Positions 14,256 through 28,294 of a DNA stretch of 64,000 nt are shown in pieces. The notes below the pieces were generated by a model that did not search any database, was not told the DNA's origin, and saw only the letters and a list, made by a program, of their open reading frames with translations. The stretch's first letter is position 1, and each line of letters starts with the position of its first letter. Both the position numbers and the translations under genes were made by a program. Origin of the DNA: Gemmatimonadota bacterium (lineage in GTDB: Bacteria; Gemmatimonadota; Gemmatimonadetes; Gemmatimonadales; GWC2-71-9); contig JAZDCZ010000419.1 in assembly GCA_036679605.1 (NCBI GenBank), positions 202,038 to 266,037 of the forward strand, in the 5' to 3' direction.

Positions 14256-14301
14256 CGATATTACGCGTCGATATTACGTACGATATATCGTACGTAATAT
14301 C
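14256..14301. promoter_or_regulatory. PadR operator candidate: perfect 32-bp palindrome plus an extra half-site
   Basis: GATATTACGTACGATATATCGTACGTAATATC at 14270-14301; CGATATTACG repeated at 14256 and 14269. Confidence 0.75.
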
Positions 14302-15328: not shown

Positions 15329-16396
15329 CTACTGTCGCCTCTCTCTGAAGAACGAGCCCCCTGACCTATTCCTGCGGCGGAAGGAACTGTCGCTCTCCGG
15401 CAGCTCGGCTGTGACCGTCATGCGGCTCTTCTTCCGCATGATAGTAAACGCGATCGTCTCACCAGCGTCGTAGGACCGGATCATTCGAAGCGCGTGAGCC
15501 GCGCTAGTCGGCTTTCGATCGCCGATGTTCAGAATGACGTCGCCGGTCTTCAGGTTGAGGGACGATTCCCTTGGAGCCCGGACGATCAGCAACCCCTCAT
15601 CGGTTCCGAAATAGTCACCCAACTCTTCGTCCAGACTAACCAGTTCGATGTCGAGCCATTGCAGTGGCACGGACCCGAAAGGAAGTCCCCGCACGGAATA
15701 TGGTTGCGGGCCTACTCGCACGCGCGGAGCTAATTCTTCGAGAAGTCGAAGACTCGGATCGCCTGAGAAGCTGAAAGAATAGGACTCGGATTCCAGTTTC
15801 CGCAGAATGACGTCGGCGTCGTGGTTCTCCGCGCCGCGGCGGTATTCCACGTGTAGAGTGTCACCTTCCTCGAGTTCGTTCTTGATCCGGACGAGCTTGT
15901 TTCCCGGCGATATGCTCCATCGATCGGCTCGCCCAAGAGTCTCTCCGTTCGCCTTGGTAATAACGTCTCCTGCCTCGAGGCCTGCTTCGTCGGCTGGCCC
16001 ACCTTCGACCACGCTCTCCAAGCCTGCACCGACGGAGTCGTTGTCGTCATCGCTACTAGTACTCAAGTAGACACCCATCTGGATCCGGTTGCCGCCGACG
16101 AACGACAACGTGCGAAAGGCATCACCTGTTGAGACGAACAAGCGATTCCTATTCAGTTCATTGATTGCGGAGCGCAAACCGGATACGAGTCGCTCCATTT
16201 CCCGCCGCGCCTCCCTGCTGTCATCTTCACGCAGCAGTCGCAGAGCCTCTTCTAACTGTCCTCGGGCTTTATCGAGCTGCTGCTCCGCTCGCTCGCGTCT
16301 GGCCTCTTCACTGCTCTGCTGAGCGTAGGCCACACCACTACCTCCTACGGCCAACAGAAACAGGGAAGCAAGAACTGCTCTTGTCTTCACTTTCAT
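15329..16396 (-). CDS. Secreted coiled-coil plus two-PDZ-domain protein
   Basis: AAGGAG RBS before ATG 16396; signal peptide AYA-Q; GPADEAGLEAGDVI and LKTGDVIL PDZ motifs; no protease domain. Confidence 0.85.
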   Translation of the reverse strand: MKVKTRAVLASLFLLAVGGSGVAYAQQSSEEARRERAEQQLDKARGQLEEALRLLREDDSREARREMERLVSGLRSAINELNRNRLFVSTGDAFRTLSFVGGNRIQMGVYLSTSSDDDNDSVGAGLESVVEGGPADEAGLEAGDVITKANGETLGRADRWSISPGNKLVRIKNELEEGDTLHVEYRRGAENHDADVILRKLESESYSFSFSGDPSLRLLEELAPRVRVGPQPYSVRGLPFGSVPLQWLDIELVSLDEELGDYFGTDEGLLIVRAPRESSLNLKTGDVILNIGDRKPTSAAHALRMIRSYDAGETIAFTIMRKKSRMTVTAELPESDSSFRRRNRSGGSFFRERRQ

Positions 16397-16441
16397 TGTA
16401 CACTCACTCCTTACTTGATCCGGCATTCCAGCCCGGACCTA

Positions 16442-17029
16442 CTAGAATCCGACGTATGCTGCCCGTCGGACCTGTGTATTAATCAACGCATCCATCAACA
16501 ACAGACGTTGACGGAACAAACCTGTGAGTTGTTCTCGGGATACAACCACCTGTCGAGCTGCCGAGAGGTGTGTATCAATCATGGTTATGCGATCTTCGAG
16601 ATCGGCGATCGCAAGTGCCGTCATTCCATTCACGACTCGCCCATCCATTCGAACGTCATGAAGCACACTATCCAATTGTCGTGATTGGCTGGCCAGCATC
16701 TGCAACTCGGTAACCGAATTGGGAACCGCTGCCGTTCTATGCACAAAACCATTCACGCCAACCAGCAACGCAAATGACGCCGCAGCAGCCCAGCCGGCTC
16801 TGAGCCAACCAGCTCTGCGTCGCTCTTTTTGAATGGCACGACCAACCTCCGACCAACGATCCCGCGGTGCACTGATACTCGGTAGCGCCTTGAGCGCCGC
16901 AACCCGCTGGTGGATCCGGTCTAGCTCATCTCGGCATTCAGCGCATTCGTCCACATGAGTTCGAGCGCCCAACAAGCCGTCCCCATTTCGTACATCGAGT
17001 AGCTCTTGAATTGTACAATGTCTCAACAT
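16442..17029 (-). CDS. Zinc-binding membrane anti-sigma factor
   Basis: TGATG overlap with the sigma stop; HVDECAEC (HxxxCxxC); one TM helix. Confidence 0.8.
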   Translation of the reverse strand: MLRHCTIQELLDVRNGDGLLGARTHVDECAECRDELDRIHQRVAALKALPSISAPRDRWSEVGRAIQKERRRAGWLRAGWAAAASFALLVGVNGFVHRTAAVPNSVTELQMLASQSRQLDSVLHDVRMDGRVVNGMTALAIADLEDRITMIDTHLSAARQVVVSREQLTGLFRQRLLLMDALINTQVRRAAYVGF

Positions 17030-17574
17030 CACGCCTCCTCGCCGAGCATCGTTCTCAACCGCGCATGAGCACGCGAAAGTTGCGATTTCGAGAAACTCAC
17101 TGTTTTCCCCATTAGCTCGGCTATCTCCTCGTGTGTGTAGCCCTCTACGTCGTGCAACCACACCACCGCCCTGCTCGTGTCCGACAGACACTTCAATGCG
17201 TCCTCCAGATCGAGCCGGAGGCCGGATTGTCCCTCCAGCGACCATCTCCCAGCAAACTCCTCGTGCAGTTCCTCAGTATTCCGGTACTTCTCATACCTCA
17301 CACGCATCAGTGCTTTGCTGGCAGCTATGCGCTTGATCCATGATGTCATGCTCCCGGCCTGGTCACCACGGAATTTTTTTATGCTGCGGCAGACCTCCAG
17401 GAAAGTTTCCTGAAGCACATCTTCCGCATCTTCCGCGGTGCGGCATATTCTCCGAGCCATTGTGTAGACCAGACCCTGATAGCTCCGATACAAGCCTTCG
17501 AGAGCTGCAAGGTCGCCGGTCTTGGCCCGGCGAATCGCCATGTCGTCGACTGCAACCAAGGACATTTGCGTCAT
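17029..17574 (-). CDS. ECF RNA polymerase sigma factor
   Basis: DAEDVLQETF (region 2); EGYTHEEIAELMGKTVSFSKSQLSRA (region 4.2). Confidence 0.95.
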   Translation of the reverse strand: MTQMSLVAVDDMAIRRAKTGDLAALEGLYRSYQGLVYTMARRICRTAEDAEDVLQETFLEVCRSIKKFRGDQAGSMTSWIKRIAASKALMRVRYEKYRNTEELHEEFAGRWSLEGQSGLRLDLEDALKCLSDTSRAVVWLHDVEGYTHEEIAELMGKTVSFSKSQLSRAHARLRTMLGEEA

Positions 17575-17688: not shown

Positions 17689-18831
17689 TTGCAAGCATAC
17701 GCGGGAAGTAGGCTCAATTTGAAGAGAACGGACGCAAGCGACCTTTGGCGTCACCACCTCCAGGATGAGGCCGACGCCGCGTTCCTATACCGAATTCTGG
17801 CTGACGCGGAACCCACCGACAAGAGGAGTGATCTGTACCGTCGTCTGGCCGATGTCGAGGACCGGCATTCAAAGCTCTGGTGCGAGGTTCTGGAACAACA
17901 TGGCCATGAGGCGCCCGTGCCAGGTCCCTCGTTCAGAGCGAGGCTGCTCGCCAAGATAGCAACAATGTTCGGTCCCACTCTGCTGCTACCACTGCTGCTG
18001 AGAGAAGAAGGTCTCGAGGTTAAGGGATACCTCGACATGTACCGACAAAGTGAACCCGGCACTGCGCGCGACACCGCTCTCACCTTGGCAAAGGAATCAG
18101 CCGAACATGCGACGGCGCTGGGCCAGCTTTCAGATGCGGTGGGTGAGCCGTGGCACAGCACTGGGTCGGGTGGTTTTCTCCGCAACGTCATCTATGGGTT
18201 CAATGACGGGTTGACGGCTAACTTCGGCTTGGTTGCGGGTGTTATCGGAGCGGCGTTCGAGTCTCACATCGTGCTCGTGTCGGGCTTGGCAGGAATGATT
18301 GCGGATGCTCTATCGATGGGTTCCTCGGGATACTTGGCTGCGAAAACCGAACGCGAGGTTTATGCAAACGAGATCGCGATGGAGCGCGAAGAGATTCGGC
18401 TCATGCCCGAACTCGAGGAAGAGGAACTTGCACTGCTGTACGAGGCCAAGGGTGTCGAGACCCAGCGCGCCCACGAGATGGCACACGACATTATGCGAGA
18501 CCCTGAGCGCGCGCTAGCCGAAAAGGTGCGCGAAGAACTCAAAATAGGTGATGCACACACTACACCTGTCAACGAAGGTCTCATTACCGGTATCGCTACT
18601 GCGGTTGGAGCGTTCATACCCTTCGCTCCGTTTCTCTTCATGGAGGGTCAGGCCGCAGCGCTCACTGCTTTCTTGCTTGCGATGACCTCGCACTTTGCCG
18701 TGGGTGCGGCAAGGAGTTTCTTCACCGGGCGCGGACTATTCAAGAGCGGCTTAGATATGTTTGTGGTCGGACTCGGCGTTGCCGTGGTGGGCTACCTGGT
18801 TGGTGACCTTGTCGCCAAGGCGTTGACCTGA
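17689..18831 (+). CDS. Ferritin/rubrerythrin-like domain fused to VIT1/CCC1 metal transporter
   Basis: N-terminal E..EDRH..E..EH diiron-like residues; LRNVIYGFNDGL and ALSMGSSGYL VIT1 motifs; alternative start TTG 17719. Confidence 0.9.
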   Translation: MQAYAGSRLNLKRTDASDLWRHHLQDEADAAFLYRILADAEPTDKRSDLYRRLADVEDRHSKLWCEVLEQHGHEAPVPGPSFRARLLAKIATMFGPTLLLPLLLREEGLEVKGYLDMYRQSEPGTARDTALTLAKESAEHATALGQLSDAVGEPWHSTGSGGFLRNVIYGFNDGLTANFGLVAGVIGAAFESHIVLVSGLAGMIADALSMGSSGYLAAKTEREVYANEIAMEREEIRLMPELEEEELALLYEAKGVETQRAHEMAHDIMRDPERALAEKVREELKIGDAHTTPVNEGLITGIATAVGAFIPFAPFLFMEGQAAALTAFLLAMTSHFAVGAARSFFTGRGLFKSGLDMFVVGLGVAVVGYLVGDLVAKALT

Positions 18832-18915
18832 CTAGACCACGAGATTAACCAACCGGTCCTGAACGTAAATCGATTTTTTCACGTCGCGACCATCCAAGGA
18901 CCGGCGCACCGCATC
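18831..18915 (-). repeat. Orphan duplicate of the leuS 3' end (att-like direct repeat, copy 1)
   Basis: 73/85 nt identical to 28210-28294; encodes DAVRRSLDGRDVKKSIYVQDRLVNLVV*. Confidence 0.95.
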
Positions 18916-18952
18916 GTGCAGTCGATCCGAAGATTGGGTTCGCTTGGTACGG

Positions 18953-19060
18953 TCACTGGAAGCAGAAGCCGAACTCAGTAACAGTATATGTGTATTGGTC
19001 ACTTGCCGTACTTTCACCATCGTTTACTTCAACCTTTATCTCGGGCACCGCGGCCATCAT
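18953..19060 (-). pseudogene. Orphan C-terminal fragment resembling the tail of the island subtilase
   Basis: EIKVEVNDGESTASDQYTYTVTEFGFCFQ* aligns with TLRLNVLDSGGADGFDQLSATVNSQAPPCLN*. Confidence 0.5.
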
Positions 19061-19100
19061 GGTCCTGTCGCTGTGCAGAACGGCGGGTAGTGCGACGGCG

Positions 19101-20357
19101 TTAACCAGTGGGATCCACCACTTTCCCGATAAAGAGAATGGTCCCCGAAATCCGCTCGCGCAGCACGAAGAGGAACGGCTGGTCGATGACGAACGGCGGC
19201 GGCTCACTGATCATGCCGAAGCTGACGGACGTCACCGCCGCCGCTTCCGTGCCCACCTCGTCCACCTTGACAAACGTCTTGTGTTGGACCGTACGGATGA
19301 AGAGCCCAGCGCCGGGAGTGATGTTGCTGAAGTCTGCCAGCGCTGCGTCGAATGCAATCCCCATCCCCAGCGCCGAGAGCACGTCGTTCATTGTGATCTT
19401 GTACTCGAACTGGAACTTGGGCATCACCACGATCTTGTTTGCGCTGTCGACCTCGAGCCCGGCGGTCCACGCCTGCCAGCGATCGCGATCGAACGCGGCG
19501 ATCACTTCGTCTAGCGTGACACCCGCTGCTGGCACCGCCGCCACCATCGTGAACGCCCCACCGCCGTACGGCATCTCGATCACGTTCGCCAGTTGGTCGC
19601 CGCTGATCCGAACGGGTACCGGGTCCGCATGCGACATGGTGGGGACCGACCTCTCCGTGCCATCTCTTAACGTGAACGGCCGGTCGCTGGTGAGCGACTT
19701 GTCGAACTGGTTGGTCCAGTCACCCTTGAAGAACACGGCGTTGATCACGAACAGCATGGTTGAGCGATCGATGGGCCTCGGCGCGATCGAATCGATCCGT
19801 CCGTTGGTGTGATCCCTTACCCATCCATCGATAATGTCGGGCGCGTTGGGGGCGCCGAAATCCAGGGCCTCCACCTGAGCATCGAAAAAGGTGGTGGCCG
19901 CGTCCAAGAAGGTGGGGAGCACGGGGGCCTCGGGCCGATGCCATATGGAGTTGGCGAGATTGAACGTCACCCGGCGATCCAGATTGACCAACAGGTCGAT
20001 CAAGCCGCGGTAGCCGTCATTGACCTGGTCGATGGCAAGCCCCTCGAATCCCAAGGTCTTGGCCATCGAGTCTCTCGTCGCTCCGGCGGCGCCATTGTAC
20101 GTCATGCCGAGCGCCATGCTCACGCTCAACGGCGAGATAAAGAGGTTTTCGTCGGGATTGGCCTGGGCATCCACCGCGCGGAACAGACGCATGGCGAAGG
20201 AATTGTCGGACTCCACCAACGCCAGCTCCGCCGCGGTCAGCTCCCGGGGCAACACTTCGATGGGTCCCATGGGTCCTAAGGAGTTGCCACCACCACCGCA
20301 GGCAACGGCGAAACCGATGACGGGCACGAACGCGATACGTTTACAGACACGCTTCAT
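19101..20357 (-). CDS. Serpin (serine protease inhibitor), lipoprotein
   Basis: Lipobox AVAC; NLFISPLS, NAVFFKGDW, hinge DEVGTEAAAVT, FVIDQPFLF. Confidence 0.95.
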   Translation of the reverse strand: MKRVCKRIAFVPVIGFAVACGGGGNSLGPMGPIEVLPRELTAAELALVESDNSFAMRLFRAVDAQANPDENLFISPLSVSMALGMTYNGAAGATRDSMAKTLGFEGLAIDQVNDGYRGLIDLLVNLDRRVTFNLANSIWHRPEAPVLPTFLDAATTFFDAQVEALDFGAPNAPDIIDGWVRDHTNGRIDSIAPRPIDRSTMLFVINAVFFKGDWTNQFDKSLTSDRPFTLRDGTERSVPTMSHADPVPVRISGDQLANVIEMPYGGGAFTMVAAVPAAGVTLDEVIAAFDRDRWQAWTAGLEVDSANKIVVMPKFQFEYKITMNDVLSALGMGIAFDAALADFSNITPGAGLFIRTVQHKTFVKVDEVGTEAAAVTSVSFGMISEPPPFVIDQPFLFVLRERISGTILFIGKVVDPTG

Positions 20358-20420
20358 GATTGGGTACCTCCGTTATCAAGACAATACACACAGTCACGTA
20401 GACCTGTCGCGGTTGGCCGG

Positions 20421-21581
20421 CTATGGTGGCGTCACGGCCCACAGCCCCGCGCGGGTCCCGACGAGCAGCCGACCGTGGGCCGCATCGACCGCCGTCGCCG
20501 TCCCCGTCGCGCCCAAGGCCCCCCGGGGCACGGCGAGCGAGTCCCAACTCGCGCCGCCATTCGTCGTCCGGTACCACCCCAGGTCCGTCAGTTCCCGGAA
20601 GGTGCCGTCGGGATTCTTTTCGAATTCAAGGAACACGGTGGCCGCATAGAGCACATCGTTGAGCTCGGCGAAACCCGCCACCGCACCACGCGGACCCGCG
20701 GCACAGTCCCACGAGCCCCTTGCACCCGCCTCGTCAGATTGCATCAGCCCTAACTCGGCCCCGAGGAACAGTCGGTCTGGCACGTTGGGGGCCAGGGCGA
20801 GTGCGTTGGTCGGCGTCTCGACGACCACGCTGTTGCATGTGGGAACTCCTGCGTCCCAGGTCTCGCCCCAGTCTGTGCTAAAAACGACAAACGGAACGAA
20901 GATGTTGCCCTGCCCCGCCACCCAGAGCAGGCCTGTGCGCGCCGGATCGATCAGGATGTCCACGTGCCACGCGCAAATGTTGAAGCTTCCGAACACGAAC
21001 TGCCACGTCTCTCCGGCATCGAGCGAGCGCAGCACGCCGTGGCAGTTGCTCATGAACACCCGCTGCGCGTTGCCGGGGTCGACCTCCAGGTCGTCAACGA
21101 AGACGCGGTACGGGTTGCGGGACTCCGTCGCCAGCCCCCCGTCAAACGGCACCCACGACTCCCCCCGGTCGAAGCTGGCGAAGACCGCGGCGCTCGTTGT
21201 GTCTTCCTTGGAGCCGTTGCGAAACGTCACGCCCGCGAGGAGGCGCGGCGGGTCGGCCGGAACATAGAGCAGCGCCTTCGGGATGAGGTGGTTGTGCCAG
21301 GCTTGCGGACCCAGCGCCGTCCACCCGCCGTCCGACTCGAGCCGGAAGATCCCGTGGTCGTTCGTGCCCGCGAACAGTCCCCAGGGCGTTACGGCGACCT
21401 CGGCTATCCACTCCGACTCGAGCCCCAGCAACGTCCAGCAGCCGCTGTCGAGTTCCAGCGGGCATACCTGCGAAGAAGATAGGCTATCCGAGCAGGCGGC
21501 GAACATGCCCGCCACAGAAACGACGACGACGGAGCGAACCAGCCAATCCGCCACACGGCCGGAAATGTGTTGCCGTGCCAT
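20421..21581 (-). CDS. BNR/Asp-box repeat beta-propeller lipoprotein
   Basis: AAAGGAG RBS before ATG 21581; lipobox FAAC; Asp-boxes SFDRGESW, SLDAGETW, STDWGETW, TTNGGASW. Confidence 0.8.
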   Translation of the reverse strand: MARQHISGRVADWLVRSVVVVSVAGMFAACSDSLSSSQVCPLELDSGCWTLLGLESEWIAEVAVTPWGLFAGTNDHGIFRLESDGGWTALGPQAWHNHLIPKALLYVPADPPRLLAGVTFRNGSKEDTTSAAVFASFDRGESWVPFDGGLATESRNPYRVFVDDLEVDPGNAQRVFMSNCHGVLRSLDAGETWQFVFGSFNICAWHVDILIDPARTGLLWVAGQGNIFVPFVVFSTDWGETWDAGVPTCNSVVVETPTNALALAPNVPDRLFLGAELGLMQSDEAGARGSWDCAAGPRGAVAGFAELNDVLYAATVFLEFEKNPDGTFRELTDLGWYRTTNGGASWDSLAVPRGALGATGTATAVDAAHGRLLVGTRAGLWAVTPP

Positions 21582-21744
21582 ATGAGCGCTCCTTTGATGT
21601 TTAAGGATTACCGAAGCCTCACCCGCGACGGCCCGCCACCGTGCCGCCGGGGTCAACCGCCCGCACACGAACGCACCTCCTCTGTTTGAACTAACCCCAT
21701 GCCCGATGGAAAGTTGCAGGGGTCCGGCGGCACCGCGGGCCGGT

Positions 21745-23452
21745 TCAGTTCAGACACGGCGGGGCCTGAGAGTTGACGGTAGCAGACAACTGATCGAACC
21801 CGTCGGCACCACCGCTATCCAACACGTTGAGCCTCAAGGTGTAACGCGACAGATCTCCCGTCCAGACGGTGACGTAACTGTCGCTCCCTATCGGAACGCC
21901 ATTCCTGCCACTGATATGAGTACATTCCCGTGCCACCAGATACCGCCGAGTCATAGAAGCAGTATTCATCCGGTGGGACCATCGTGGAACCAAAGATCGT
22001 AACATTCAGGGAAGGGGGTGGCGGGGGGTCCGGGACGCCAACGGCGCGCGCCGCGTCGAGCACACCGTGGCCGAGGTAATCGTCCCGCCCGCCCGCGCCC
22101 AGACCATCCGCGGTGTTGAACAGCCGATCCACGATCTGCTGATTCGTCCAGGTTGGATTCTGCTCTCGAAGCAGGGCGGCCGCGCCCGAAACGTGCGGTG
22201 TCGCCATCGAGGTGCCGCACCAACCCGAGGTTTCGTCCTCGTAGCTGTTATTGCCGACCGTGCTCAGGGCCCAAAACGGCGCCGCAAGGTCCACGTAAAC
22301 GCCCTTGTTCGAAGCGACCGTTTGGGATGGATCGTTTGGATATGTGCAGGGACTGCTGCCGGCGAAGCTGCCGTCGGTTTTCACTCCCGAGACGCCGATG
22401 ACATTCGTGTACTCGGCAGGGTAAAAGTTGGTGGGAGATGACTGGGCGCTGCCCCTGTTTCCGGCTGCCGCCACGAGCACGACCCCGTCGCTCCACGCCT
22501 GGGCGACAGCATTCGCCATCCCGGCGTCGAAAACAGTACCCCCCAGGCTCATGCTCAGCACATCGAAAAAAACGCTCGCCTGGATACCAGAGATAATGTC
22601 AGTGGTGGGGCACCCGAACTGAATCGGTCCAGAAAAACAGGCGCCGTAAACGAAGACGTCGGAGGGCGCAACCCCGGGCGCGGCGCCTACCGCTCCGATG
22701 CTGTTGTTGCGCGCGGTGAAGATGCCTAGAACGTGGGAGCCGTGCCAGAACGGACCGTCATCGCAGCCGCCCTCGTTTCCCGCGCAATTGGCGAGTGGCA
22801 CAAGCGGAAGGTCCTGGTGGCCCCGGTCGTGCCCGGTGTCGATGATCTGAATCTTGGCGGTGGCACCGGTCGCGCTGTCCCACGCCTCTGGGGCGCGCAC
22901 GAGATCCATGCCCCATGGTATCGTCTGACCGTTCAGCGATGCCCTCCCGAACGCCTTGATAGGCGCCTCCACGCCCTGCACAGACAACCGCTGGAGCGGT
23001 TCGATATAGTCCACCAGCGGATGGTCGCGCAGAAGCGTAGCCGTCCCAGCCGGCAACAGAACGTGCGCAGCCCCCATGAACCAGTAGAACTCAATGACCG
23101 TGACGCCCCGCTGGGCCAGGACCGCAAGGGCAGCGTCGATCGTGCCCCGGGGAATCGCCTCGCGCCGCCCGGTCTCGAGCGCACGCGGTGAGGCCGGGGT
23201 TTTGAACGCGATCACGGCATGGCCGTCTTCCTCGGCGATCGCCTGCTCCAGTGCGACCGCACTGGTGTCCCAGGGGCGGGGCTCGGGTGGCAGGTCGATC
23301 GTGACGGCCGGGACATCCTGTACCTGAGCTGCTGGCATGCCGGAGAGTCGTGCCGCTACGTCGCTGTCCGCAATAGGCGGATTCGGCAGATCGGAACATG
23401 CCGTCAGTACACTGAGCGCCATGAGCGTGGCGCAGGCGGAACTCCTTACCAT
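21745..23452 (-). CDS. S8 subtilisin-like serine protease, lipoprotein; frameshift near 21907 in the C-terminal beta-rich domain
   Basis: AAGGAGGT RBS; lipobox LTAC; triad IIDTG / HGSHVLG / GTSMATPHVSG; AAAGN; natural-looking tail continues in another frame to the stop at 21745 (as-read frame stops at 21815). Confidence 0.9.
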
Positions 23453-23533
23453 AGTACACCTCCTTGTGATGAAAGGCACCCGAATCGCCATAATGCTCGG
23501 TCAGATGGGCGACGACGATTCTCATGCCTAGCA

Positions 23534-23564
23534 TACAGGGGTCCTGAACACGCCAAAGGTTACA
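23534..23564 (-). promoter_or_regulatory. Island ECF promoter copy A (subtilase unit)
   Basis: TGTAACCTTT-ggcgtgttcagga-CCCCTGTA on the minus strand. Confidence 0.85.
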
Positions 23565-23755
23565 CGCCAAATACGATCACTTTTGCACACACGACTCAAG
23601 TTGTTGCTTTGCAGCAAGTTACGTGTCATGTTCGCGAACTCGAATAGCTCCTCGGCCACGGAACGGTCAGCTGAACGCCCGCTCGAGATCGAAGAGACCA
23701 GGAACCTGGCCGGCGGCTCACAATCGCACCGCGCACCATCAACTGGATCTTCGCA

Positions 23756-23786
23756 TGTAACCTTTGCCGTGTTGAACGCCCCTGTA
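23756..23786 (+). promoter_or_regulatory. Island ECF promoter copy B (peptide unit)
   Basis: TGTAACCTTT-gccgtgttgaacg-CCCCTGTA. Confidence 0.85.
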
Positions 23787-23833
23787 CTGAAGACAGGTGG
23801 TTGACGAGAGGCACTCAACACGGAGGATTCCTC

Positions 23834-24052
23834 ATGCAAGTTCCACTACGTAGACTGATACTTGTCGCTGGTGCCGCGGTCGCTCTGACGGCCATACCCT
23901 TGGCGGTCACAGAGTCTGAAAACCGGGTCTCGCTCGGTGTCAGTGACGCATGCGCTCAGGGTGGTTTCTGCTGTCGCCACGAACAGGGTTCGCTGTGCCC
24001 CAGTAGCATACCGGACGGGCAGCCCAAGGGTGACTACACGCCTTGTGGCTAG
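23834..24052 (+). CDS. Small secreted Cys-rich peptide precursor (72 aa)
   Basis: GGAGG RBS at 23822; RR plus hydrophobic signal; ...VSDACA-QGGFCCRHEQGSLCPSSIPDGQPKGDYTPCG*. Confidence 0.8.
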   Translation: MQVPLRRLILVAGAAVALTAIPLAVTESENRVSLGVSDACAQGGFCCRHEQGSLCPSSIPDGQPKGDYTPCG

Positions 24053-24112
24053 TTAGCTACACTGATCCGACGTTGAGTTCGGGTACGATAAAAGCTGAGT
24101 ATCACCAATCGC

Positions 24113-25228
24113 ATGGGGGCAGTTTTCATGCAATGTAGGTGCACTCTCCGCCGGGTCGGTCTCGCGTGGAGCCTTTCATTGTTAGCGCTGCTCACCCATG
24201 CGTGCGGCAGCGAGTCAACCAGCGGGCTACGGTACGGACCGGCTGAACTCGATCACGCGGCCGTTGGGGTCATTGATGTGAAGAGTAGGACCCTCTTCGA
24301 GTCGGACACCCTCGCGCTTCCCTCTGACATAGCGCTCGTAGGCGACAACGTGGTCGTCATAGACAATGCCAACGAACCCGCCCTATTCGTTGTAGACAGA
24401 ACGAGTGGAGAACTGCTGCGTGCGATCGGGAGGCGTGGAGACGGCCCTGGCGAGTTCCGGCAGCCCTGGACTCTCGACGCTGTTTCGGGTAGCACATCGG
24501 AGGTGTGGGTCTACGACTTGGGATTGGGTAGGCTCACAAAGTTGGATGTAACCACCTCTGAGGACGCCGCAAGCAGCCGGATCGTTAACCTTGGGAGCAA
24601 CGGCGCTACAACGGGTCCGATATGGACCGATGCCAACACGATCGTGAGCCTGGGACTCTTTGCGACCGGACGCCTGGCCGTGTTCAACGTGGACGGCGAG
24701 CGGACGGGCACCTTTGGAGTCGTCCCGCTCGGCCCGTCGACGGTCCCGGCAACGGTGAAGCAGCACGCCTATCAGGCAACACTGGTTCCACATCCCGAGC
24801 GACACCTAATGGCAGCGGTCACGAGACACGCCGGCCGCATCGAGTTATATCGGTCCGACGGCTCGACCGTCGCCATGCTCGACGGCCCGCTGCCCTTCGA
24901 GCCCCGCTACACCGTTGGTTCGAATGCGCGCGCAGCGGTGCTGCGAACCGGAGACGACCTGCGATTTGGTTATATCGACGGAGCGGGCTCTAACAAATAC
25001 ATCTTCGCACTGTTCTCCGGCAGGACACGGGAGGGATTCCCCGGGCGTGCAAACTTCGCTAGGTTCGTACACGTATTCGATTGGAAAGGAACCTTCCAGA
25101 AAGCGCTGCGCCTGGACCACGACGTGCTGAGCATCGCCATAGACAGGGGGTCAACGACTCTGTACGCCGTTACGCACGATCCGACACCGGCAATACTGAG
25201 CTACTCGTTATCCATGTTCGTACCGTAG
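24113..25228 (+). CDS. 6-bladed beta-propeller lipoprotein (BF3164/TolB-like)
   Basis: Lipobox THAC; IGRRGDGPGEF; KYIFALFSG..VHVFDWKG; start may be ATG 24128. Confidence 0.85.
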   Translation: MGAVFMQCRCTLRRVGLAWSLSLLALLTHACGSESTSGLRYGPAELDHAAVGVIDVKSRTLFESDTLALPSDIALVGDNVVVIDNANEPALFVVDRTSGELLRAIGRRGDGPGEFRQPWTLDAVSGSTSEVWVYDLGLGRLTKLDVTTSEDAASSRIVNLGSNGATTGPIWTDANTIVSLGLFATGRLAVFNVDGERTGTFGVVPLGPSTVPATVKQHAYQATLVPHPERHLMAAVTRHAGRIELYRSDGSTVAMLDGPLPFEPRYTVGSNARAAVLRTGDDLRFGYIDGAGSNKYIFALFSGRTREGFPGRANFARFVHVFDWKGTFQKALRLDHDVLSIAIDRGSTTLYAVTHDPTPAILSYSLSMFVP

Positions 25229-25253
25229 GGTTTTCTGGGTACATGCAGCTCGT

Positions 25254-27416
25254 TTAGGAACCGTCGTCTGCCACATTCACAGCGGTAGGCGCGGTTAGAG
25301 CCTCGAGCACGCGCACGATTTCGTCCAAAGAGTTCTCGGACAGCCGTATGCGACTCGACTTGTCCAGCACCAGGTAAAGCGGTGTCTCCCACAGACCGAG
25401 CGCGTCGCGTGCCTTCCCATCCACATGAAAGACTCTCGGTGCGGACGGGTGCTCCTGAACGAAACGGTTGAGAGCTAGGGACTGTGACTCCGCCGTTAAT
25501 ATCAACACGCGAACGCCGCGCGGTTCATAACGGGCAGTGACTTGCTGTAAGCGCGGCAGTTCACTCAGACACGGGGCGCACAACCAGGACCAGAACGCCA
25601 CGAGCGTAACTTGGCCACCCGTGAGTTCGTCAAGTCGATGACTGGCACCCGCCGAGTCGGTCAACTCCACACCACCACGCACAAAGGTGTTACTCGTGCC
25701 GCCGAGAACGCGCTCGTACATCTCGTCTCGTGCGACCCTTGTCAGCTCTGTCCATCGAGCGCCGTTCACGAGGCCGGTCGCCAGCGCCGCAAGCGAATCC
25801 CGGGCAGTAGTCGTGGTATTCGGGTCGACCGCCAGTCTGGCCAACATGCCAACCGCACCGGCCGTATCGGCAATGCCGAGCCTTACCTCGGCCGATACTC
25901 CAAAGACCTCCGTATCCCATCCGGTCGCCGCCGCCTGGTCCAGAGCGTCGAGACCGGCCTCGGTATCGCCCAACTGCACGAGCGCCCTACCTAGCGGTGC
26001 GAGGACTCGGCCACCCTCCGCCTCGTCGTAGCGCCGCTGCTCGCCGATGGTGCGAGTCAGAGGCCGTCTCCAACCGGCATCGGTGTCAGTGCGTGCCAGC
26101 TCATCACGCAGCCGCTCTACAGCGACCCTTCTCAATTCCGGCAGCTCGGCCAGTTGCTTCGCTACGGCAAGTGCCGCCCACGGTTTCAGCGCCACGCGGC
26201 GGTCGGCCCATCGCAGTATCGCGTCTGGGTCTCCCGCCCGCAGTGCCACAGAAAGTCCCATCCGAGGCAGTTGAAAGGAGACTGCGCCAACTTCTTGCCA
26301 CAGACCCTCCAGTTCCCGCAGCGCTCCATCGCGATCGCTCCCATGCGCCGCGATGATCCGAAAGACACGTTGTTGCACTGCCTGAGGATGGCCCGGTGCT
26401 TCAGTTAGCAGCCGATCGCGCCAATAATCGACCCTCCCCGGATCTTGCTCTGCGATGAATCCCAGCCAGTATAGTCCCGCCAACGTGTCGCCGCTAAGCG
26501 AAATGTCATTGGCAAACCGGCTATGCAACTCCTCATAGCGCGCGCTCCAACGTCCGGAGAAATCGGTCATGCCGCGCGATCGGGATAAACTTTTCTCAAA
26601 CCCCGCTAGTCGCGACCAGGCATCGGGATCGTCGGGATATACCTCGGTGGCCCGCCTCGCAGCTTCCAGACCTCCTTGCCAGTTTCGTCCGCTCAAATCG
26701 TTTTGTTGCTGCACCAACGCCCGATAATCCGGCTCGTCGCCATTGAAGACCAGAAGCTCCCACAACGCACCACGGTTGCTGTCAACGCGCGCACCCAGCG
26801 TATCCTCCACCGCGAATACCGCGTACACCACCGAGTCGGGAAGCTGAACGCTGCCCTCGAATCTCCTGCGTCCGACTTTCTCCAGTTGAGCCACCACAAT
26901 CTGTCGGGCGCCGGGATCGTACTCCCGATCGGCAGCCGTCCTGTAGCGAGCGCGGAGTACCAGGCGAGCTTCGCCCGCGAGCATCGAGGTACTGCGGTAC
27001 TCCACAGCAATCAGATCGCCGCGCTCGGGCTTCTCGGGTGTCAAGATCAACTCTCCCGACACCCGCTCGGCCCCCAAGTCCGGAAGCGAGCGAACCAGGA
27101 GAGCGCCTGCGCCCACCAGGGCAACCAGCGCGGCGGCTATCATGCCCAGTCGTTTGGGCAGCGCCGGAAACGGGTCGGACAGCGGCAAAATCACCCGCTC
27201 CCCGGCCGCGCGTCTCGCCAGCACGCGTTGCAGGATTGCGGCAGGCGGTTTCTGTGTTGGAATTGATCGGGCCTGCTCATCCAGAGCCTGAATCGATGCC
27301 ACCGTGTTGCGGCACGGCAGGCAAGCGGCCAAATGCTCGGCTACCCGACTACGTCTCTTGGTGGATAATTCGCCGTCGACGAAACCATGCAGTTCTGAAC
27401 GAGAGAGGTGTCTCAT
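25254..27416 (-). CDS. zf-HC2 anti-sigma / TM / TPR-like helical region / TlpA-like thioredoxin fusion
   Basis: HLSRSELHGFVDGEL..HLAACLPC; TM LGMIAAALVALVGAGALLV; C-terminal TLVAFWSWLCAPCLSELP..ETPLYLVLD; start immediately follows the sigma stop. Confidence 0.85.
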   Translation of the reverse strand: MRHLSRSELHGFVDGELSTKRRSRVAEHLAACLPCRNTVASIQALDEQARSIPTQKPPAAILQRVLARRAAGERVILPLSDPFPALPKRLGMIAAALVALVGAGALLVRSLPDLGAERVSGELILTPEKPERGDLIAVEYRSTSMLAGEARLVLRARYRTAADREYDPGARQIVVAQLEKVGRRRFEGSVQLPDSVVYAVFAVEDTLGARVDSNRGALWELLVFNGDEPDYRALVQQQNDLSGRNWQGGLEAARRATEVYPDDPDAWSRLAGFEKSLSRSRGMTDFSGRWSARYEELHSRFANDISLSGDTLAGLYWLGFIAEQDPGRVDYWRDRLLTEAPGHPQAVQQRVFRIIAAHGSDRDGALRELEGLWQEVGAVSFQLPRMGLSVALRAGDPDAILRWADRRVALKPWAALAVAKQLAELPELRRVAVERLRDELARTDTDAGWRRPLTRTIGEQRRYDEAEGGRVLAPLGRALVQLGDTEAGLDALDQAAATGWDTEVFGVSAEVRLGIADTAGAVGMLARLAVDPNTTTTARDSLAALATGLVNGARWTELTRVARDEMYERVLGGTSNTFVRGGVELTDSAGASHRLDELTGGQVTLVAFWSWLCAPCLSELPRLQQVTARYEPRGVRVLILTAESQSLALNRFVQEHPSAPRVFHVDGKARDALGLWETPLYLVLDKSSRIRLSENSLDEIVRVLEALTAPTAVNVADDGS

Positions 27417-27421
27417 CACCA

Positions 27422-27976
27422 CTAGTCTCCTATGATCCTTCGGAGCATGTCTTTGGCGCGGTACAGCCTGACCTTGGACGTTCCGGTGGTTATACCAACC
27501 ATTCTTGCGATCTCCGAATGTGCATAGCCTCCGATCACCCTCATCACAAAGACAATACGCAGGGATTCCGGAAGATTCGCGATTGCTTCCTCGATCATCA
27601 TGCGGTCCACGTGCCCCGGAGGCTCCTCTGCGGTTTCGCTCGGCGAGAGAACTTCCAGAGGAACCTCGGCTCGCCGCTTTGACGAGCGATTTCTCCGATA
27701 CGCGGTTCTGAATGCCACCGTCTTGATCCACCCTTCCAGACTGCCATGTCCTTTGTATCCGTGCAAAGCCTCCGCCAGGTCCATGAACACATCTTGAACG
27801 ACATCCATGGCGTCTTCGTGCGATTTCGTCAGTCGCACCGCTATACCAAAAACCATTGCTCCAAACCGCTCAAACAGCTCCGCGATGGCCTCCGGCTCGC
27901 CCGACCGCGCCCGGCTCAGGAAAGCGGGTGATTCGAACCGGTCGTTCGCGTCGGTCACCGACAGCGACGCCCCCAT
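27422..27976 (-). CDS. ECF RNA polymerase sigma factor (island)
   Basis: DAMDVVQDVF; GYAHSEIARMVGITTGTSKVRLYRA. Confidence 0.95.
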   Translation of the reverse strand: MGASLSVTDANDRFESPAFLSRARSGEPEAIAELFERFGAMVFGIAVRLTKSHEDAMDVVQDVFMDLAEALHGYKGHGSLEGWIKTVAFRTAYRRNRSSKRRAEVPLEVLSPSETAEEPPGHVDRMMIEEAIANLPESLRIVFVMRVIGGYAHSEIARMVGITTGTSKVRLYRAKDMLRRIIGD

Positions 27977-27998
27977 GGAGGCAACGCGGGCCCTATAC

Positions 27999-28029
27999 TA
28001 CAGGGGCCACGAAGGAGCAAAAGGTTACA
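27999..28029 (-). promoter_or_regulatory. Island ECF promoter copy C (sigma/anti-sigma unit, autoregulatory)
   Basis: TGTAACCTTT-tgctccttcgtgg-CCCCTGTA ending 22 nt upstream of the sigma ATG. Confidence 0.85.
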
Positions 28030-28209
28030 TGACGTCAATTTCATCGACCGGCTAGAATACGCATAAGTCCCCTGTCTTCAAGTCTTTAGCCGCATTGTAC
28101 CGGCGATCGGCGATCGACAGAACCAACGCCATTTCGTATGCGACTATCAGATTGGGACAGGTTGAGATTTCCGGCTCCCTCTGGCGAGAAAACCGCTGGC
28201 TACTCTAGT

Positions 28210-28294
28210 ACTAGACTACGAGATTAACCAACCGATCTTGCACGTAGATCGATTTTCTTACTTCCCGACCATCCAATGCCCGGAGCACCGCATC
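28210..28294 (-). repeat. leuS 3' end (att-like direct repeat, copy 2)
   Basis: Matches 18831-18915 with 12 substitutions and no indels. Confidence 0.95.

Follow-up and report, generated by a model that had tools for sequence, protein, structure and literature searches.

A stretch of 64,000 nucleotides from a Gemmatimonadota bacterium (GenBank assembly GCA_036679605.1, contig JAZDCZ010000419.1, positions 202,038 to 266,037; termed here the window, with all coordinates counted from its first letter) carries an island of seven genes at the 3′ end of leuS. The island spans 18916..28209 and comprises three transcription units. An earlier note, made from the sequence alone, had described one integrated system of seven parts. 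Its open reading frames are all found at the places and with the domains it gave, in three units; on comparison with related loci, the seven-gene system reduces to a conserved core of four genes plus cargo. The core encodes an extracytoplasmic function (ECF) sigma factor, an anti-sigma factor, a small secreted cysteine peptide and a beta-propeller lipoprotein. This four-gene switch is real and conserved, and apparently undescribed. No description of it was found in the non-subscription literature searched, and the supplement of the ECF classification (PMC7826278), a source available in part, may hold one. It is proposed, with somewhat less than even confidence, that the island is a mobile, autoregulated ECF switch in which the peptide-propeller complex is an input or modulator of the anti-sigma state.

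Related loci were collapsed at 90% identity to a set of 91 rows, and matches below 250 bits or falling short of the C terminus were dropped. The sigma gene stands directly upstream of the anti-sigma gene at 64 of 65 loci with a zinc motif. Peptide and propeller genes adjoin the anti-sigma gene at 33 of the 58 distinct loci with enough DNA, and are present anywhere in the fetched locus at 38/58; these are the neighbors that had been expected of such anti-sigma fusions in a genome search. In an even sample of 401 genomes, both genes are next to the anti-sigma gene at 20/27 loci, with one genus dominant. The linkage occurs in three arrangements (32 co-directional, 6 convergent and 2 divergent). 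The S8 subtilase, the Asp-box protein and the serpin of the island were found by tblastn at 0/68 other loci (one locus has a different BNR protein), and two paralogous islands carry other cargo. The suggestion that these three proteins are parts of a signalling loop is thus not sustained, and by sequence comparison they are interchangeable cargo that shares the promoter of the switch without belonging to it.

The sigma factor (184 amino acids; 27422-27976, minus strand) displays Pfam Sigma70_r2 and r4_2 domains above cut-off and scores 83.9 bits with TIGR02937, against a cut-off of 42.9. It is small and has regions 2 and 4 only, as in ECF (group IV) factors. The promoter motif TGTAACCTTT-N12-RCCCCTGT is present in three copies in the window, a number reached by 0/100 shuffles, and no copy beyond these three was found in the 6.7-Mb genome. 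The three ECF-type promoters, located by motif search, lie before the sigma gene (27999..28029, minus strand; −35 TGTAAC, 16 nt, −10 GCCCC), before the peptide-propeller unit (23756..23786, plus strand) and before the cargo unit (23534..23564, minus strand), which agrees with the shared motif that had been noticed upstream of each unit. A family promoter model with a fixed spacer, TGTAA(C/G)-N16-GCAT(C/T), is above threshold before 43/69 sigma genes compared with 0.9% of shuffles; the model was trained on the regions it scored, so the count is somewhat generous. With the same model, a second promoter copy is found before the peptide gene in 5 of 7 separately transcribed cases (the window, the islands on contigs C422 and C294 of the same genome, L050 and L052), and none was detected at L025, L026, L036 or L004. 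The family motif before the sigma genes supports a self-contained ECF regulon, in keeping with the self-regulating unit envisaged in the earlier note. About half of ECF sigma factors autoregulate, according to the available part of one survey (PMC7776599), and class I anti-sigma factors are given for ∼79% of Gemmatimonadetes ECFs in the accessible part of another (PMC7406223).

The anti-sigma factor (720 amino acids; 25254-27416, minus strand) was delineated from Pfam matches (zf-HC2, TPR_14 and AhpC-TSA/Redoxin) and a structure model (pLDDT 87). An N-terminal ZAS domain with an HxxxCxxC motif (residues 1-70), modelled as three helices, precedes a single transmembrane helix (residues ∼90-108; hydropathy peak of 2.5 at residue 90). 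These are followed by a beta-sandwich (121-225), a TPR/alpha-solenoid region (231-572) and a TlpA/ResA-like domain with a CAPC motif (584-710), for which Foldseek lists ResA, TlpA and DsbE chains with target TM scores of 0.6-0.8. A family profile of 39 rows gave 662 representatives at E<=1e-30, the best 150 being mostly full length, and 36/37 relatives are from Gemmatimonadota. Matches are present in at least 41/401 genomes of the even phylum sample, some of them without the zinc domain; two candidates were scored per genome, so this number is a floor. The HxxxCxxC motif is intact in all 166 homologs that have the N terminus. The zinc motif in a helical N-terminal domain, the one transmembrane helix and the position of the gene after the sigma gene are all features of class I ZAS anti-sigma factors.

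The terminal domain is less uniform in its active site. The island copy has the TlpA/ResA fold with CAPC at residues 613-616 and Pro679, and CxxC is kept in its close clade (window, C422, C294, L036 and L167). CxxC is not conserved across the family, where 72 of 166 members display CxxA, 51 CxxS and 9 CxxC; the first cysteine is present in 36/39 of a query-biased set. Among peptide-linked anti-sigma factors, this first, attacking cysteine is missing in 34/42, and 26/41 have no ectodomain cysteine at all. Peptide-less anti-sigma factors keep one cysteine, the first, in 18/24 cases. As the attacking cysteine is gone in most peptide-linked members, the peptide link needs no thiol chemistry by the anti-sigma factor. 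Redox editing by the anti-sigma factor, as had been put forward, therefore fails as a general mechanism, although the island copy does have the CxxC on which the idea was built. A pairing of the odd peptide cysteine with the single anti-sigma cysteine was also considered and was dropped once loci were split by peptide presence.

Secreted TPR-TlpA proteins without a zinc domain were observed as well (L172, L174-L176, L180-L185, L208 and L209), many of them with CxxC. Their genes lie within arrays that can hold six or more genes for six-bladed propellers, and some come after an ECF sigma/HEAT-repeat operon. Such proteins of Bacteroidota and Gemmatimonadota, often amid propeller arrays, share the beta-sandwich/TPR/TlpA body of the island protein (ESM Atlas 0.95-0.97). 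Those at L172-L209 differ from it in that they have a signal peptide, no zinc domain or cognate sigma factor, and mostly CxxC or CxxS. The sequence comparison suggests that the receptor probably arose by fusion of a secreted TPR-TlpA protein to a zinc anti-sigma domain.

The secreted peptide, defined from its open reading frame and the family alignment, has 72 amino acids (23834-24052, plus strand) and five cysteines (C40, C46, C47, C55 and C71). Common to the 51 aligned peptides are a Sec-type leader with an invariant proline at its end, a polar linker after it and three cysteines that never vary; the family is very variable, with a column identity of 22%. The number of cysteines after the proline is odd (3, 5 or 7) in 51/51 peptides, and in 39/39 after removal of near-copies, additional cysteines being gained and lost in pairs. 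Other small secreted cysteine peptides near propellers at the same loci, which serve as a control, have an even count in 8/10. The alignment leaves out two peptides cut by contig ends, two broken frames (L188 and L203), three weak or spurious matches, including the six-cysteine L057, and L192, L202 and L223, each with five cysteines. Between the second and third invariant cysteines the distance hardly changes (7-8), whereas the distance from the first varies between 4 and 11, so C40 is likely the unpaired cysteine. Lipidation at C40 is unlikely, as this residue lies 14-22 residues past the helix-ending proline and behind the polar linker. Mature peptides are acidic in 44/51 cases, and tryptophan, found in 22/51, is not invariant and is absent from the island peptide. 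No Pfam or NCBIfam family matches the peptides, bacteriocin families included, and an ESM Atlas search with the peptide gave no usable match (best 0.82). A parallel with NVEALA proteins had been drawn, but the peptide is not a member, since 0/51 match the PF14055 hidden Markov model (HMM); a genome search for NVEALA gave 0/151 matches, with the controls of that search silent too. In three genomes an S26 signal peptidase gene directly follows the peptide-propeller pair (L199:10352, L215:6108 and L222:3807), which hints that the peptide leader may be processed by an enzyme of its own.

The propeller (24113-25228, plus strand) is a TolB-like/NHL-like six-bladed beta-propeller and a membrane-tethered lipoprotein, with a TolB_like (PF15869) score of 62.3 bits against a cut-off of 29.2. 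The best solved matches to its model (pLDDT 87.9) are NHL six-bladed propellers, and a PDB sequence search gave an NHL domain as the sole match. The propeller gene directly follows 54/56 peptide genes. Co-folding of propeller residues 36-371 with peptide residues 26-72 gave a score of 0.63, compared with 0.02 for the best of three controls; the co-fold mark is reached by 116/157 solved complexes and 2/215 mismatched pairs, rates that are only rough for the alignments used here. At least 44% of contacts recur between runs, and the confident ones involve the peptide loop 49-54 and residue 56, with C40 outside. The co-fold supports peptide-propeller binding, as surmised beforehand, in the form of a predicted complex. 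The mature domain of the island propeller has no cysteine, as is the case for most mature propeller domains, and a propeller cysteine is an unlikely partner of the odd cysteine of the peptide. One clade (L198 and L201-L204) displays a conserved 99-amino-acid gene after the propeller gene; the one scanned has no Pfam match.

Two paralogous islands in the same genome, on contigs C422 and C294, repeat the four core genes and the divergent arrangement of promoters but carry other cargo. On C422 this consists of DsbA, propellers, a six-cysteine peptide and efflux genes, and on C294 of an S41 protease, other cysteine peptides and propellers. A fourth sigma/anti-sigma pair, on C13, is without a peptide. 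The assembly has a contamination of 6.3%, so paralogs on short contigs could derive from a second strain. Each paralog has a promoter variant confined to its own loci (island 3/3, C422 type 7, C294 4/4 and C13 1), the C422-type copies being divided between C422 (five) and C212 (two); the patterns were written from the sites themselves, and it is their confinement, not their presence, that constitutes the result. Per 100 nt, the window displays 81-98% DNA identity to C422 from 23901 to 27200, with one bin at 73%, and 56-77% outside this segment, in the sigma gene, the zinc domain and the peptide leader. The breaks are sharp and fall inside genes at domain borders, namely within the leader of the peptide and at residue ∼72 of the anti-sigma factor. 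Synonymous divergence (dS) ranges from 0.04 to 0.30 across the mature peptide, the propeller and the ectodomain; most of the sigma factor, the zinc domain and the leader have values of 0.8-1.9. For peptide residues 27-72, nonsynonymous divergence (dN) is 0.029 and dS 0.26, and a 36-residue peptide core is identical in the two copies (36/36). Across 30 loci, propeller and TPR-region distances have a Spearman correlation of 0.81 (0.54 without a large clade), and sigma and TPR-region distances one of 0.30 (−0.07 without it). The periplasmic trio behaves as one inherited unit and the sigma factor, zinc domain and promoter as another.

Other arrangements related to these islands were noted. Contig C212 (129200-137200) has a broken sigma copy, two C422-type promoters, a redoxin gene and small peptide and propeller genes, and may be what is left of a fifth island or else an outlying segment of the C422 regulon. 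On C294, a 69-amino-acid peptide with six cysteines (L022:13091-13300, plus strand) is encoded 170 nt behind the C294 promoter variant; it has no Pfam or NCBIfam match, and its leader is assumed here to be possibly of the double-glycine type. Locus L199 (genome G133) contains a tandem of three sigma/anti-sigma modules, two of them with their own peptide and propeller.

A sequence of events can be proposed for the switch. Anti-sigma factors with a ZAS domain hold their sigma factor through the cytoplasmic zinc-motif domain, and the sigma factor would be held in this way by the one-pass anti-sigma factor of the island. It would transcribe its own operon, the peptide-propeller unit and the variable cargo unit through the three copies of the same promoter. 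The peptide would be exported and its signal removed. A disulfide may then close the variable peptide loop, which is predicted to dock on a face of the membrane-tethered propeller; C40, judging from parity and spacing, is probably unpaired and outside the propeller interface. The peptide-loaded propeller would contact the TPR/thioredoxin-fold ectodomain and set the degradation of the anti-sigma factor, as RseB or PbpP do. The thioredoxin fold may be mainly a binding module, with catalysis dispensable in most peptide-linked members. The peptide could be either a sentinel, which is lost, cut or modified under stress, or an autoinducer, with feedback of either sign, and the subtilase, Asp-box protein and serpin would be outputs. 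A further proposal, speculative and considered unlikely, is an ECF-based peptide system for cell-to-cell or kin sensing in a diderm phylum. The propeller would read the variable disulfide loop, which would define a specificity group, and would present the free cysteine to the thioredoxin fold of the anti-sigma factor, supplying in trans the thiol that is missing from most peptide-linked receptors. Recombination at the border of zinc domain and transmembrane helix would plug the input into new sigma-promoter outputs, with several insulated channels per genome.

Several observations weigh against the peptide-propeller complex as an input. Physical linkage alone can yield co-inheritance; linkage contributes, but the sigma gene is as near the TPR region as the propeller gene is. 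Peptide-propeller pairs are present in 7 genomes (91-99% complete) in which a full-length anti-sigma factor was not found. Conversely, 24/66 anti-sigma rows are without a peptide in the fetched locus, and a genome-wide peptide search in five genomes with peptide-less anti-sigma factors gave none in 4/5. Each half exists alone, and thus the pair is an autonomous module, frequently recruited by the receptor or simply under its control. The association between a linked peptide and a missing redoxin cysteine is not independent of phylogeny. A raw Fisher p of 1e-5 gives way to 3-4 independent pairs and p = 1 on the tree (FastTree and a quick LG tree, with long-branch warnings), and peptide linkage is not supported as the driver of cysteine loss. 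In the co-fold the peptide fold is uncertain (pLDDT 40-44, at least 39), and conservation at the propeller residues of the predicted interface does not exceed the average (0.45 vs 0.52). Variable propeller contacts would fit matched diversification; equally, the model lends no support to a conserved site.

A rival explanation, held to be somewhat unlikely, is that the pair is output only, a secreted peptide plus the protein that carries it or assists its folding, as one of several cassettes switched on by this sigma factor, and that the anti-sigma factor senses something else via its ectodomain, e.g. thiol-reactive compounds or misfolded exported proteins. The pairs without an anti-sigma factor in the 7 genomes, sometimes with their own S26 signal peptidase, DsbA or AhpC/TSA protein, are consistent with it, as are the additional, unrelated cysteine-peptide and propeller cassettes of the C422 and C294 regulons and the one cysteine kept by 18/24 peptide-less anti-sigma factors. 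However, of all cargo, just this peptide family and propeller subfamily stay with the anti-sigma factor across families and rearrangements, and they travel with the ectodomain, not with the sigma factor. An antimicrobial peptide with a propeller as immunity protein under ECF control is less credible still and is regarded as improbable. A mobile island and a small, very variable exported cysteine peptide, predicted to be bound by a cognate membrane-tethered protein, would suit this role, and the C294 peptide whose leader may be of the double-glycine type is encoded behind a copy of the promoter variant of that island. Yet 44/51 mature peptides are acidic, the leader is of Sec type, the core has no conserved exporter or modification enzyme as a neighbor and no bacteriocin family in Pfam or NCBIfam matches.

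The full loop of the earlier note, where the subtilase matures the peptide, the serpin damps the subtilase and the CAPC redoxin edits the peptide disulfides, is very improbable. It accords with the promoter common to all three units, the CxxC of the close clade and intact S8 catalytic motifs, but S8, serpin and Asp-box genes occur at 0/68 other loci. C422 has an identical peptide core yet DsbA-type cargo and no S8 gene on that contig, and CxxC is limited to 9/166 family members, with 34/42 peptide-linked ones lacking the first cysteine. Most doubtful of all is a methylamine dehydrogenase-like enzyme in which peptide and propeller would be the small and large subunits and the thioredoxin fold would help folding in the manner of MauD. 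A propeller is a subunit of methylamine dehydrogenase. A disulfide-rich small subunit, a propeller and a CXXC thioredoxin do form the parts list of that enzyme, as far as the available sources describe it, and the S8 protein has a weak NCBIfam match to QhpE (44.9 bits vs a cut-off of 165). Against this, the peptides have no conserved tryptophan for a quinone cofactor (22/51, none in the island peptide), and no cofactor-making gene is conserved among the neighbor clusters.

By the features compared here, the switch belongs to the ECF/class I zinc anti-sigma kind. DdvS-DdvA of Myxococcus xanthus likewise consists of an ECF sigma factor and a one-pass anti-sigma factor with a cytoplasmic zinc-binding domain; the periplasmic part of DdvA is also a large TPR region that terminates in an enzyme-like, maybe incomplete domain, and the system is island-borne, according to the part of its description available (PMC11506125). 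From the same part, the island anti-sigma factor differs in having a TlpA/ResA-like terminal domain, not a caspase-like CHAT, and an HCC-type zinc motif; the island regulon comprises exported peptides, propellers, proteases and redoxins, that of DdvS-DdvA CBASS/CRISPR, and the island system, unlike DdvS-DdvA, has a dedicated linked peptide-propeller pair. No CBASS/CRISPR families were found among the neighbor representatives scanned. The switch can also be likened to RpoE-RseA-RseB and sigmaP-RsiP-PbpP, where a co-encoded extracytoplasmic accessory protein sets anti-sigma proteolysis (PMC10202637, available in part), as would be the case here. Unlike RseB or PbpP, to the extent those accounts go, the accessory is a propeller with a secreted odd-cysteine peptide, and the locus lacks a conserved site-1 protease. 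In the parts of the ECF classification covered, an anti-sigma factor resembling AhpC/TSA is given for ECF284 alone. ECF284 similarly has a putative +1 anti-sigma factor with some AhpC/TSA homology, but is described for Actinobacteria only, with two transmembrane helices and no conserved context beyond the anti-sigma factor; the zinc/TPR architecture, peptide and propeller are not mentioned in the available part of its description (PMC7826278).

In Bacteroidota, NVEALA peptides sit beside BF3164-type propellers. These pairs and the island family have in common a small exported cysteine peptide directly before a TolB-like propeller lipoprotein, and the neighborhood of either may include signal peptidase I and redoxins; a search for literature on "NVEALA" found none. 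The island family differs in that it has no match to the NVEALA HMM (0/51), displays its invariant cysteine in a D/E/A-A-C-A motif and is tied to a dedicated sigma factor and anti-sigma factor. Judged by these comparisons, the switch is neither DdvA, NVEALA nor a recognisable bacteriocin system.

The ectodomains of ECF anti-sigma factors and their signals are mostly uncharacterised. In the present family a candidate ligand, a 46-residue peptide accessible to synthesis, comes together with a predicted partner for binding and a sharply defined promoter, which makes it feasible to reconstruct and test the entire switch in a laboratory strain. Pairs of small cysteine peptides and six-bladed propellers are widespread and unexplained, and the predicted complex gives a starting point for understanding them. 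A natural exchange of sigma factor and zinc domain while the sensor stays constant, each paralog having its own promoter, would amount to a ready-made set of modular and possibly orthogonal switches.

The cargo unit of the island consists of three genes on the minus strand. The S8 subtilase lipoprotein (feature 21745..23491, open reading frame 21815-23491) has an intact catalytic domain, with its motifs at residues 216, 250 and 426 upstream of a frameshift in the C-terminal domain. Compared with a 92%-identical copy of this domain on contig C311, two nucleotides are missing near 21906, which causes the frameshift. One sequencing contig has two extra letters at 21906, but its loose ends fit the C311 paralog, so it is no evidence of an assembly error. 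On C311 (L024:7903-10457, minus strand), the same C-terminal domain is found on a different, chymotrypsin-like-looking protease that is followed by a related Asp-box protein, a pair that by its sequence is a separately shuffled cassette. The BNR/Asp-box lipoprotein of the island (20421-21581) scores 24.9 bits with BNR, below the cut-off of 27, and the serpin lipoprotein (19101-20357) matches Pfam Serpin with E 7e-103. Lipobox-like motifs, which had been listed for the four large exported proteins, are present in all four by sequence pattern.

The 3′ end of leuS is present as a direct repeat of 85 nt, 86% identical (18831-18915 vs 28210-28294), which confirms the duplicated leuS ends described previously. 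The copy at 28210..28294 (minus strand) now completes the gene and is probably the att copy supplied by the island; that at 18831..18915 (minus strand) would be the displaced original end and other att copy. In G001, a genome of the same genus, the site is empty, with the VIT1 gene directly abutting leuS, and the G001 leuS tail has greater likeness to the distal copy than to the copy now ending leuS. The empty site and this likeness therefore indicate that leuS was the point of insertion and that the island brought the end the gene now has. As in integrative islands, the target-site duplication restores leuS and a relative has the empty site. The G + C content is 0.617 in the island compared with 0.559 and 0.574 in the flanks. 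No integrase gene was found among the open reading frames between the leuS repeats by the reading-frame list and a Pfam domain scan, and an excision joint was not found in contigs from sequencing runs.

A short open frame between the serpin gene and the distal leuS copy (18953-19101, minus strand) is a possible remnant, with no relative found in the genome. To the left of the island lies a host-borne trio that encodes a second ECF sigma factor, a putative anti-sigma factor and a PDZ protein (15329-17574, minus strand); the trio is likewise beside leuS in genome G036. Further left, a perfect 16-nt inverted repeat at 14270-14301 is a likely operator, flanked by what are taken to be a PadR-like gene and two paralogous membrane-protein genes.

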